A DNA stretch of 64,000 bases from an uncultured Chloroflexia bacterium (GCA_963763495.1 CAVXOY010000017.1:51204-115203); one strand, 5' to 3'. Positions 52,082-56,685 are shown, counted from the stretch's first letter. A program made the numbers and translations. The notes: generated by a model from the sequence alone, not told the origin.

Positions 52082-52160
52082 CCAGAGGGTCGGGCTTCCG
52101 TTGACAGCGGCGCTACAATAACAGCAGTCCCCCGCCGATCCTGATCTCAGGAGACGTGAC

Positions 52161-53174
52161 TTGGCATCGCACCTGAAGCACGGCATCCTGTTCCTTATCC
52201 TGGCCCTCGCGGTCGCGCTGACGGGGCAGCCGGTCGCCGCCGACGGCATCCGCTATCGCGACGAGGTCTTCCCCACCGTCACGGTCGCTCACGACATCGC
52301 CTACGGTCAGGCAATCGACGAGTACGGGCTGCCGGAGACGCTTTACCTCGACCTCTACCAGCCCAGCGGCGACACGGAGCCGCTGCGCCCCGCCTTCGTC
52401 TGGATCCACGGCGGCGGCTTCACCGGCGGCGACAAGGTGGGCGGCCTCGATGTCGAGATCGCCACCCGCTTCGCCAAACGCGGTTACGTCACCACCTCGA
52501 TCAACTACCGGCTGCGTGAGGGCGAATACTTCGAGCCCGGCGACCCCGACCTGCTGCTGGCCATCTTGGACGCCCAGCACGACGCCCAGGCCTCCGTCCG
52601 CTGGCTGCGCGCCAACGCCGCCACCTACGACATCGATCCCGACCGCATCGCTGTGGGCGGGACCTCCGCTGGCGCGATCACCTCCCTATTCGTCACCTAC
52701 AACTCCGCTGACCCCGGCGACAGCGGCAATCCGGGCTACCCGTCCGACACCAGCGCCTGCGTCGACGTTTCCGGCGCGACGGCCGTCGTGCTGATGGATG
52801 CGGGAGAGCCGCCGGTGCTGGTGGTGCACGGGGTAGAGGACACGCGCGTCCTGTACAGCAGCGCTCTGGCCATTGTCGCCCGCGCCGCCGAGGTGGGGAT
52901 ACCGGCGGAGTTCCACTCCCTGGAGGGAATCGGCCACGGCGTGTGGACGCTGTACAAGGAGGACATCATCCTCTGGACCGCGAACTTCCTCTACGTCCAC
53001 GTCATCGACCCGCCGCCCGTCGGGGGGATAGCGGAGCATCCGCAAATCGAGCCCGATGCGGCTACCGGCGGGAGCGGAGCATCGACGGCCGTCGCCATCG
53101 GAGGCATCTTAGCCGTCAGCGCACTGCTGCTGGCGGCGGGAGGGCTGCTCGCGTTCCAGCGACGCAGAGCTTGA
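52161..53174 (+). CDS. secreted alpha/beta-hydrolase esterase with C-terminal sorting-signal-like tail
   Basis: Signal peptide, HGGGF oxyanion motif and GTSAG nucleophile elbow. The C-terminus reads ...PPVGGIAEHPQIEPDAATGGSGASTAVAIGGILAVSALLLAAGGLLAFQRRRA (motif, spacer, TM helix, basic tail). Confidence 0.75.
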   Translation: MASHLKHGILFLILALAVALTGQPVAADGIRYRDEVFPTVTVAHDIAYGQAIDEYGLPETLYLDLYQPSGDTEPLRPAFVWIHGGGFTGGDKVGGLDVEIATRFAKRGYVTTSINYRLREGEYFEPGDPDLLLAILDAQHDAQASVRWLRANAATYDIDPDRIAVGGTSAGAITSLFVTYNSADPGDSGNPGYPSDTSACVDVSGATAVVLMDAGEPPVLVVHGVEDTRVLYSSALAIVARAAEVGIPAEFHSLEGIGHGVWTLYKEDIILWTANFLYVHVIDPPPVGGIAEHPQIEPDAATGGSGASTAVAIGGILAVSALLLAAGGLLAFQRRRA

Positions 53175-53248
53175 CAAAGCCCGTATAATACGTTCGTAAT
53201 CCACAAGTCCGGCGCGACGCCGATCTGCACTCATCTGGAGGCGGGGAG

Positions 53249-55049
53249 ATGAGACATAAGCTTCTGCTTCTGGCAATCACGAGTGGATGCTTTCTGCTGA
53301 TGCCGAGGGGAACGGAGGCCGGGCCCATTGGTGCCTTCACCCAGGTCAGCGCGGGCTTGGTGCACACCTGCGGGGTGAGGACGGACGGCACCGTGGCCTG
53401 CTGGGGACAACGACTACGGGCAGGCGACGCCGCCCGCCGGCACCTTCAGCCAGGTCAGCGCGGGCGACGACCACACCTGCGGGGTGAAGACGGACGGCAC
53501 CCTCGCCTGCTGGGGGGAACGACGTACGGGCAGGCGACGCCGCCTGCCGGCACCTTCACCCAGGTCAGCGCGGGCGGTTGCGCACACCTGCGGGGTGAGG
53601 ACCGACGGCACCGTGGCCTGCTGGGGGTGGAACGACTGACGGGGCAGGCGACGCCGCCCGCCGGCACCTTCACCCAGGTCAGCGCGGGCGTCGTTCACAC
53701 CTGCGGGGTGAAGACGGACGGCACCGTCGCCTGCTGGGGGGACAACGACTACGGGCAGGCGACACCGCCCGCCGGCACCTTCACCCAGGTCAGCGCGGGC
53801 GGCTGTCACACCTGCGGGGTGAAGACGGACGGCACCCTGGCCTGCTGGGGGGACAACGACTACGGGCAGGCGACGCCGCCCGCCGGCACCTTCACCCAGG
53901 TCAGCGCGGGCGACCATCACACCTGCGGGGTGAGGACGGACGGCACCGCTGGCCTGCTGGGGGTACAACGACTACGGCCAGGCGACGCCGCCCGCCGGCA
54001 CCTTCACCCAGGTCAGCGCGGGCGACTACCACACCTGCGGGGTGAAGACGGACGGCACCGTGGCCTGCTGGGGGGACAACACGCTACGGCCAGGCCACGC
54101 CCCCCGGCGGCACCTTCACCGCCAGGTCAGCGCGGGCGGCTATCACACCTGCGGGGTGCGGACCGATGGCACCCTCGCCTGCTGGGGACAACGACTATGG
54201 GCAGGCGACGCCCCCCGCCGGCACCTTCAGCCAGGTCAGCGCCGGCGATGACGCACAACTGCGGGGTGAAGACGGACGGGACCCTCGCCTGCTGGGGGGA
54301 CAACGACCTACGGGCAGGCGACGCCGCCCGCCGGCACCTTCAGCCAGGTCAGCGCGGGCGGCTACTCACACCTGCGCGGTGAGGACGGACGGCACCCTCG
54401 CCTGCTGGGGGTGGAACGACTACGGGCAGGCAACGCCCCCCGCCGGCACCTTCACCCAGGTCAGCGCGGGCCTGTATCACACCTGCGGGGTGAGGACGGA
54501 CGGCACCCTGGCCTGCTGGGGGAGGAACGACTACGGGCAAGGCGACAGCCCCCCGACGGCACTTTCAGCCAAATTAGCGGGGGCGGTTACTTTACCTGCG
54601 GGGTGCGGACGGACGGCACCCTGGCCTGCTGGGGGGACGATACCTACGGGCAGGCGACGCCGCCCACCGGCACTTTCACCCATGTCAGCGCGGGCTATGG
54701 TCACACCTGCGGGGTGCGGACGGACGGCACCCTAGCCTGCTGGGGGTGGAACGACGCGGGGCAGGCATCGCCACCCGAAGGAATATTCACCCAGGTCAGC
54801 GCGGGCTACGCTCACACCTGTGCGGTCAAAACGAACGGTCTCGTCCTCTGCTGGGGGTTGAACGATAACGGGCAGGCCGCCGCCCCCGTCGGCGGGATAG
54901 CGGAGCACGCGCAGCTTGAGCCAGCCGCAGCATCCGACGCGCACGGCTCATCGGAGTCCAACGCCCTCGCTCTTGCGGGAATCGCAGCCGTTGGCGCGCT
55001 GTTGCTGGCGGCGGGCGCCTGGGGCATGAGGAGGAGGCGGGCAGGCTAG
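53249..55049 (+). CDS. secreted RCC1-like repeat protein (about 14 x 37-aa repeats) with the same C-terminal sorting-signal-like tail
   Basis: Signal peptide MRHKLLLLAITSGCFLLMPRGTEA. Repeats read GTFTQVSAG..HTCGVKTDGT.ACWGDNDYGQATPPA. The C-terminus is ...APVGGIAEHAQLEPAAASDAHGSSESNALALAGIAAVGALLLAAGAWGMRRRRAG. Many repeat-internal indels. Confidence 0.75.
53328..54890 (+). repeat. tandem array of 14 near-identical 111-bp coding repeats
   Basis: The unit ggcaccttcacccaggtcagcgcgggc...tgctggggggacaacgactacgggcaggcgacgccgcccgcc recurs with a 111-bp period at high nucleotide identity. Confidence 0.8.
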
Positions 55050-55062
55050 CGGGCCGTAAAGC

Positions 55063-55875
55063 ATGAGCCGCTACACAAGGCTTCCCCGGAAAGGCGCGGC
55101 TGAGCCCTCCTCTAGACGGAGATGGAAGGCTGCGTTCGCTATCATCTTCGCCGTTGTCATCCTGTTCGCTGCGGCTGTGGTCGGGGCGGTTCTCCTCCTG
55201 CGTAGCGACGGCGGACCGTCCTCACCCAAAGCCGCCATCGTCGACCAGCTAAGCCTCAACGAGCCCAACCCGGGGTTCGTCCAGAGCGTCACCGCCACGC
55301 TCCAGGAAATGGGCTACACCGTCGACTACTTCTCCGGCGAGTATGCCACCGTCGACCTCTTCCGCATCCTGCCGGAGCGCGGCTACGACCTGCTCATCCT
55401 CCGCGTGCACTCGGCGCGGGTCAAGGAGTCGCGCGAGGGGGCGCTCACCGAGGAGGTGGCGCTGTTCAGCGGCGAGGCCTACGACGAGAGCAAGTACCAG
55501 CAGGAGCAGTGGTCGTACCGCCTCGACGTGGCCCGCTATCACAACGCCCAGGGAGAGGAGACGCTCGTCTTCGGCATCGGGCCCGACTTCATCCGCGACA
55601 GCATGAAGGGCCGCTTCAAGGGTACGACGGTGATAATGATGGGCTGCGACGGTCTCAGCTCGGACACGGCAGCGGCGGCGTTCGTCGACAAGGGGGCGAG
55701 CGCCGTCGCTAGTTGGAGCGGGCCGGTCTCCGCCGCCCACACGGACGCGGCGACGGAGTCGCTGGTGCGGCGGCTGGTGGTGGACGGCCTCGACGCGCAG
55801 CAGGCGGTGGTCCAGACAGCCGGCGAACTTGGGCCCGACCCGTCCTACGGCAGCACGCTGCTGGTCTATCCATAG
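55063..55875 (+). CDS. N-terminally membrane-anchored extracytoplasmic protein with His/Cys motifs (caspase-fold-like?)
   Basis: Arg-rich cytoplasmic N-terminus and one TM helix (AAFAIIFAVVILFAAAVVGAVLLL). The ectodomain has a strand-His (DLLILRVHSA) and strand-Cys (TTVIMMGCDGLSS) followed by GASAVASW. Intact 270-aa ORF. Confidence 0.6.
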   Translation: MSRYTRLPRKGAAEPSSRRRWKAAFAIIFAVVILFAAAVVGAVLLLRSDGGPSSPKAAIVDQLSLNEPNPGFVQSVTATLQEMGYTVDYFSGEYATVDLFRILPERGYDLLILRVHSARVKESREGALTEEVALFSGEAYDESKYQQEQWSYRLDVARYHNAQGEETLVFGIGPDFIRDSMKGRFKGTTVIMMGCDGLSSDTAAAAFVDKGASAVASWSGPVSAAHTDAATESLVRRLVVDGLDAQQAVVQTAGELGPDPSYGSTLLVYP

Positions 55876-55930
55876 GACTGTCATCCCTCGCCGCGAGCGC
55901 TCAAGCGCCCGACCCTCTATAATGCCATCA

Positions 55931-56685
55931 GAATGAGAACCGCCATCCTCCTACGCTGCCGCCCTGCTCCTCTCAGTCGCCATCGTCGCCTGCAGCGACT
56001 CCGGGTCGCCGAGCCACAGGCAGCGTCGAGCTTGTCGATTCGCTGCCCCACGAGGGGAACGCCTGGGCCGAGGGACTGCTGGTAAGCGAGGGCATTCTCT
56101 GGGAGAGCACGGGGCTCAAGGGAGAGTCGGAGGTGCGCGGCCTCGACAAAGCGACCGGCGCGTGCTGTGGGCCGTCCCCAACCCGCAGGGCTTCTTCGGC
56201 GAGGGGCTGGTGCGCGCCTTCGGCAAGACGTACCTGCTCAGCTACCAGGAGGGCCAAGCCTACCTCTTCGACCGCGACGCCGCGCAGCCCTACGAGCCGT
56301 TTGCCCGCTACGAGGGCGAAGGCTGGGGCCTGACGGCGACGGACGAGTACCTCATCAACTCGAACGGCAGCGCCACCCTGTACTACCGCGACCCGGAGAC
56401 GTTCGAGATCGTGCGCGAGGTGCCCATCCAGTACGAGGGGGCAGCCGGTGGAGCGTCTCAACGAGCTGGAGTTCGACGGGACGTACGTCTGGGCGAACCA
56501 GTGGCAGACCCGCTACGTTTACCGCATCAAGGAGAGCGACCCGTCGCAGGTCACGCGCTTCGAGCTGCCGCCGGATGTCTGCCCGGGCGGCACGCCGAAC
56601 GGCATCGCCTGGGACGAGGAAGAGGATCGTCTTCTACCTCACCGGCCAGAGGTGCCCCGATATCTGGAAGGTGCGATTCCGCTAG
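55931..56685 (+). CDS. glutaminyl-peptide cyclotransferase (beta-propeller type) lipoprotein
   Basis: Signal peptide plus lipobox (MRTAILL...SVAIVACSD). Then ...LPHEGNAWAEGLLVSEGILWESTGLKGESEVRGLD..., ...ATLYYRDPETFEI... and ...NELEFDGTYVWANQWQT...GIAWDEE... These are characteristic of plant/bacterial-type QC. About 3 frame breaks. Confidence 0.65.

Follow-up and report, generated by a model that had tools for sequence, protein, structure and literature searches.

Why do two unrelated secreted proteins, encoded side by side in an uncultured Chloroflexia bacterium, end in the same short tail, and is the gene that follows them connected to it? The question is raised by a 64-kb stretch of DNA (hereafter the window), in which the genes, tails and promoter-like elements given here with coordinates lie on the plus strand. 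The first gene (52161..53174) is an intact ORF with a TTG start encoding a secreted alpha/beta-hydrolase esterase of 337 aa, with Pfam matches to BD-FAE (3.7e-25), Abhydrolase_3 and COesterase and a signal-peptide-like N-terminal segment, MASHLKHGILFLILALAVALTGQPVAADG. The second (53249..55049) encodes an RCC1-repeat beta-propeller (RCC1_2, 1.6e-35) with a signal-peptide-like start, MRHKLLLLAITSGCFLLMPRGTEA. Both termini run from P-VGG-IAEH through a Gly/Ser spacer and a hydrophobic helix to RRRR. The esterase ends in DPPPVGGIAEHPQIEPDAATGGSGASTAVAIGGILAVSALLLAAGGLLAFQRRRA before its stop codon, and its tail (53016..53171) comprises P-VGG-IAEHPQIEP, a Gly/Ser/Ala spacer, the hydrophobic helix and QRRRA. 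In the RCC1 region, the final ORF (54411-55049) has AAPVGGIAEHAQLEPAAASDAHGSSESNALALAGIAAVGALLLAAGAWGMRRRRAG before its stop codon, with a tail (54885..55046) of P-VGG-IAEHAQLEP, spacer, hydrophobic helix and RRRRAG. The tripartite tail that a preliminary description of this DNA had assigned to two non-homologous secreted proteins is present in both terminal ORFs. The two tail-coding stretches are direct repeats (D4/D5) with a DNA identity of 72-75%, and the protein bodies are unrelated.

How widespread is this tail? A tail profile searched against 1.84 billion representatives matched 2,396 protein clusters at E<=1e-3 and 728 at E<=1e-10, so the tail is not restricted to the two proteins of the window. 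Among the best 150 matches, which lie in proteins of 52-965 aa, a large majority reach the C-terminus or stop no more than about 3 residues short of it. The cargo domains preceding the tail are unrelated to one another (esterase, RCC1, FG-GAP, Calx-beta, LamG, NHL, BNR, subtilase with YNCE, C92 with PD40, M12, cupredoxin and TSP_3), and most full-length cargo proteins carry a signal-peptide-like N-terminal segment. Across 40 aligned tails, VGG alone is invariant, and the terminal Y and RR are nearly so. The consensus starts with P-VGG-[IV]-x-E, passes through a Gly/Ser-rich spacer and a hydrophobic helix, and has a basic end that is typically WYARRRWLR. The motif first described as VGGIAEHxQxEP thereby keeps its VGG core, but HxQxEP is lineage-specific and the conserved form is VGG-[IV]-x-E. 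In Bathyarchaeia, a variant tail, VGG-x-x-x-P-[VI]-DK-x-x-LLAPYIGL-TM-KRRKK, co-varies with the archaeal clade of the enzyme described below.

The motif had been said to match no named sorting signal, and no Pfam or NCBIfam model matches it in ten tails from bacteria and archaea. For these tails, the models for PEP-CTERM, MYXO-CTERM, GlyGly-CTERM (MprA_tail), IPTL-CTERM, GPS-CTERM and the other CTERM domains listed either stayed under their cutoffs or gave E>0.01, and the matches listed at E<=10 included none to PGF-CTERM. The RCC1 tail does score 16.8-18.6 bits against LPXTG_anchor (TIGR01167; cutoff 15.9), a match confined to model positions 6-33, which correspond to the hydrophobic and basic part, with no LPXTG pentapeptide before the helix; it carries a risk of misannotation. 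The tail nevertheless has the attributes of the generic class of C-terminal sorting signals, namely a position at the extreme C-terminus, unrelated protein bodies, signal peptides, and a motif joined to a TM helix and basic cluster. The layout is like the logic of PEP-CTERM, LPXTG and PGF-CTERM, as had been proposed, in being a strictly C-terminal domain of motif, TM helix and basic end on unrelated secreted proteins. Judged by sequence, the tail is a widespread, previously unnamed C-terminal domain of Chloroflexota with a variant form in Bathyarchaeia.

What could act on such a tail? The candidate tail-processing enzyme is a protein of 270 aa encoded by an intact ORF (55063..55875), with a basic N-terminus, a TM helix (55114-55200; residues 18-46 of the AF2 model) and a clan-CD domain of predicted caspase-hemoglobinase fold; its N-terminal anchor and its two motifs had been recognized correctly from the outset. 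The AF2 model (pLDDT 89.2) is an alpha/beta/alpha sandwich around a central, mostly parallel six-stranded sheet, as in clan CD. His116 (codon 55408-55410; LRVHS motif, LLILRVH116S) and Cys195 (codon 55645-55647; MMGCDGL motif, TVIMMGC195) are invariant in 48/48 homologues, and each follows a hydrophobic strand (model strands 110-113 and 189-192), again as in clan CD. Peptidase_C25 (PF01364) gave sub-threshold matches in 15 of the 48 homologues (best E 0.0087) and CHAT (PF12770) weak matches in 11 of the 48 (best E 0.0019); the window enzyme itself matched neither model, and neither gathering threshold was reached. Neither the sequence-family relationship nor the multi-subunit complex of C13 / GPI transamidase (PIGK) was found for the enzyme. 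The protein is predicted to have a caspase/gingipain fold (clan CD) with a His116/Cys195 dyad, in keeping with the likeness to C11/C25/CHAT proteins suggested earlier.

Is the enzyme linked to the tail in other genomes? The enzyme was surveyed in 80 genome loci of 20 kb, 73 of them independent and evaluable. A tail-bearing gene was found directly upstream of the enzyme homologue on the same strand in 39/73 loci by HMM and 33/73 by motif regex, against a chance expectation of about 2%; the tail HMMs were built on tails of the same loci, so that their detection is partly circular, whereas the independent regex and the positional statistic are free of this circularity. The 39 include 8 of the 14 loci from Bathyarchaeia. 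The arrangement is seen in the window and in loci L001, L004, L008 and L010, and in L007 tail genes lie on both sides of a tandem pair of enzyme genes. Tail ORFs on the same strand also cluster by position: 40 of the 59 have their end between -450 and +100 nt of the enzyme match (P about 3e-48 versus a uniform spread). The immediate upstream cargo is diverse and includes the esterase, RCC1, cupredoxin and proteins of 1,300-2,300 aa. The remaining 34/73 loci have no tail gene directly upstream, and in three loci seeded on a tail no enzyme gene lies within roughly 10 kb; the latter are expected of many-to-one systems and are also compatible with a narrower, partner-specific role. Enzyme homologues adjoin tail genes beyond chance in Chloroflexota and Bathyarchaeia, and the association of tail and enzyme that had been put forward holds at the level of the gene neighbourhood.

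The tail and the adjacent caspase-fold enzyme together point to a system of a new type for sorting surface proteins. We consider it probable (about 0.6) that the region represents a single unit of a surface-protein sorting or processing system, so far undescribed, which belongs to Chloroflexota (mainly Dehalococcoidia) and is shared by Bathyarchaeia. In this model, which builds on computed features (the tail family and its position, the cargo diversity, the fold with its His/Cys pair, and gene adjacency in two domains of life), cargo would be exported via its N-terminal signal peptide and kept in the membrane by the tripartite tail, with P-VGG-[IV]-x-E and the Gly/Ser-rich spacer outside the cytoplasm, one hydrophobic helix, and the basic end in the cytoplasm. 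The 270-aa protein would be anchored by its N-terminal helix, with the caspase/gingipain-fold domain outside the cell, where its His116/Cys195 dyad would recognize the VGG motif and cleave the tail. The cargo would then be released or handed to another acceptor (a lipid, a glycan or an envelope layer), and such a transfer would resemble that of sortase, PorU or GPI transamidase. We infer the topology from the positive-inside rule; cleavage, its site and any transfer step, transpeptidation especially, are likewise what we infer. As far as computation goes, the best reading of the 270-aa protein is a dedicated tail-processing peptidase, possibly a transpeptidase. That the family are true transpeptidases, which cut at VGG and attach the C-terminus so created to a lipid of the membrane or a glycan of the envelope, is a tentative and rather less likely extension of the model.

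How does the proposed system compare with those already described? The layout of the tail is that of the signals of sortase (LPXTG), exosortase (PEP-CTERM), archaeosortase (PGF-CTERM), rhombosortase (GlyGly-CTERM) and myxosortase (MYXO-CTERM). In these systems many proteins of unrelated sequence carry both an N-terminal signal peptide and, at the C-terminus, a motif followed by a TM helix and a basic cluster; each genome has one or a few dedicated enzymes, whose genes sometimes lie beside one for cargo (Haft et al., 10.1101/2023.06.07.544157; PMC3237569). In contrast, the motif described here is VGG-[IV]-x-E, followed by a Gly/Ser spacer of 15-30 residues, and is not matched by their HMMs. The candidate enzyme is predicted to be a soluble caspase-fold ectodomain, unrelated in fold to the beta-barrel of sortase and to polytopic intramembrane proteases. 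PorU, the C25 sortase of the T9SS, is found in Bacteroidota and acts on a beta-sandwich CTD of 80 aa; the enzyme here scores far under the Pfam C25 gathering threshold, has its own N-terminal TM anchor, occurs in Chloroflexota and Bathyarchaeia with a short motif, TM helix and basic end as signal, and has no conserved link to a cyclase. The structural match to PIGK/Gpi8 (C13, GPI transamidase) is weaker than that to CHAT or gingipain, and there is no sequence similarity. PIGK belongs to a five-subunit complex of the eukaryotic ER and has a C-terminal rather than an N-terminal anchor, and acts with a C-terminal GPI signal; for the enzyme here a lipid acceptor is hypothetical. CHAT-domain proteases, for example the DdvA anti-sigma factor, SAVED-CHAT and the TPR-CHAT of Craspase, act in signalling or defence with other partner domains. 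Members of the 270-aa family have little beyond a TM anchor and the ectodomain, and their link is to secreted proteins that bear the tail.

Could the tail instead be a permanent C-terminal membrane anchor whose juxtamembrane motif is, for example, a site of glycosylation or envelope contact? On this view the clan-CD protein, rather than sorting cargo in general, would be a surface protease with a separate function, for instance to mature or shed the single protein encoded upstream of it. The loci in which tail and enzyme genes occur apart speak for this, as does a recurrent cargo domain without Pfam match (TEIVEMTLTG...DSFFDVFF) that is often the immediate neighbour and could form a dedicated pair with the enzyme. 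However, what the highly diverse upstream neighbours share is the tail and not the protein body, and the archaeal tail variant co-varies with its enzyme clade. Cleaved signals such as LPXTG and PEP-CTERM typically place an invariant tripeptide at a constant distance from the membrane, as is seen here. On balance, permanent anchoring is unlikely. It is more doubtful still that the tail is a sorting signal processed by an enzyme encoded elsewhere (a sortase, exosortase/archaeosortase, rhombosortase or CPBP-type protease), with the clan-CD neighbour accessory or unrelated. LPXTG-like tails do occur in the same loci, and sortase-type systems therefore probably coexist there; the RCC1 tail also slightly exceeds the LPXTG_anchor cutoff. 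Yet that match lacks the pentapeptide, the CTERM models give no match above cutoff, and no other candidate enzyme equals the clan-CD gene in its adjacency to tails (P about 1e-47), which holds in Bathyarchaeia too.

The preliminary description had likened the locus to a T9SS-like module, in which a caspase-fold sortase is paired with a glutaminyl cyclase that caps newly exposed N-terminal Gln. A glutaminyl cyclase gene (Glu_cyclase_2; 55934..56685, start approximate) does come after that of the enzyme, both in the window and in its closest relatives (L001-L003), and the motif of this lineage contains Gln (AEHPQIEP). However, the 80 other enzyme loci contained no cyclase homologue (0/80), and the Gln is not conserved across the tail family. 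The tail is a TM-type signal with no T9SS beta-sandwich CTD (no CTD-type model appeared in any tail scan), and no T9SS-related gene was seen in any locus examined. Under the tail-cleavage model, moreover, the part C-terminal to the cut would be a discarded membrane stub, and capping would miss the mature cargo. The missing conservation of cyclase and Gln contradicts such a module, which was rejected as highly improbable. The cyclase, adjacent only in this lineage, is thus a neighbour and not part of the tail-enzyme system. Least probable of all is that the shared tail is a by-product of local duplication or recombination without wider meaning. The two tails are indeed direct DNA repeats, and relatives without the RCC1 gene carry a chimeric tail; this reading is refuted by the profile search, which found the tail on thousands of independent proteins from other organisms.

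Returning to the sorting system, what would it mean? Chloroflexota (especially Dehalococcoidia) and Bathyarchaeia are abundant and mostly uncultured, and their cell envelopes are little known. A dedicated tail-enzyme system would explain the display or release of thousands of surface enzymes, propellers and adhesin-like proteins. If true, it would be a sixth type of prokaryotic sorting enzyme, beside sortase, exo/archaeosortase, rhombosortase, myxosortase and PorU. If the enzyme is a transpeptidase, it would be the first 'sortase' with a caspase fold in Chloroflexota as well as in archaea. Its reaction would then parallel eukaryotic GPI anchoring on the prokaryotic side, in Bathyarchaeia and Chloroflexota alike, and might conceivably have a connection with how clan-CD transamidases arose; the small soluble ectodomain could also make an attractive peptide ligase. 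The bacterial-archaeal distribution, together with a GPI-transamidase-like logic, makes the evolutionary question directly testable. Tail and enzyme each merit their own HMM, as such proteins are now labelled 'hypothetical' or wrongly 'LPXTG'.

The window also bears on how cargo genes are gained and expressed. In the closest relatives the esterase orthologue is 89% identical, the RCC1 gene is missing and the enzyme gene directly follows the esterase, whose tail is chimeric. In these relatives the esterase tail has a 3' half that corresponds to that of the RCC1 tail plus the 13-nt spacer. The tail-coding repeats probably serve as recombination handles by which cargo cassettes are added or removed before the enzyme gene. 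The RCC1 gene contains 13-14 copies of a 111-nt repeat, and the repeat spacing (109, 110, 114, 111, 111, 112, 114, 109, 113, 112, 224 and 111 nt) departs from 111 nt and thus indicates at least 8 frameshifts. The region had been described as encoding one protein (53249-55049), but its 1801 nt are not a multiple of 3 and are spread over three frames as assembled (ORFs 53249-54382, 54166-54735 and 54411-55049). The cyclase gene has about five single-base indels relative to the intact 249-aa orthologue in L001 (PF05096), and the upstream ORFs matching the NrfD and FdhE genes of L001 are each broken in two. Because all of these are frame-broken, the assembly looks indel-prone, with true pseudogenes as an alternative. 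A standard sigma-70 scan of the window gave no match, and a promoter-like pattern was found three times in the 64 kb against 0.02 expected. TTGACA-N7-TACAAT (52101..52119) lies 42 nt upstream of the esterase start, and TTGACA-N7-TATAAT (53171..53189) overlaps the esterase stop codon, 60 nt upstream of the RCC1 start. The enzyme gene has no such element ahead of it and starts 13 nt past the cargo stop, which suggests that it is co-transcribed with the upstream cargo gene.

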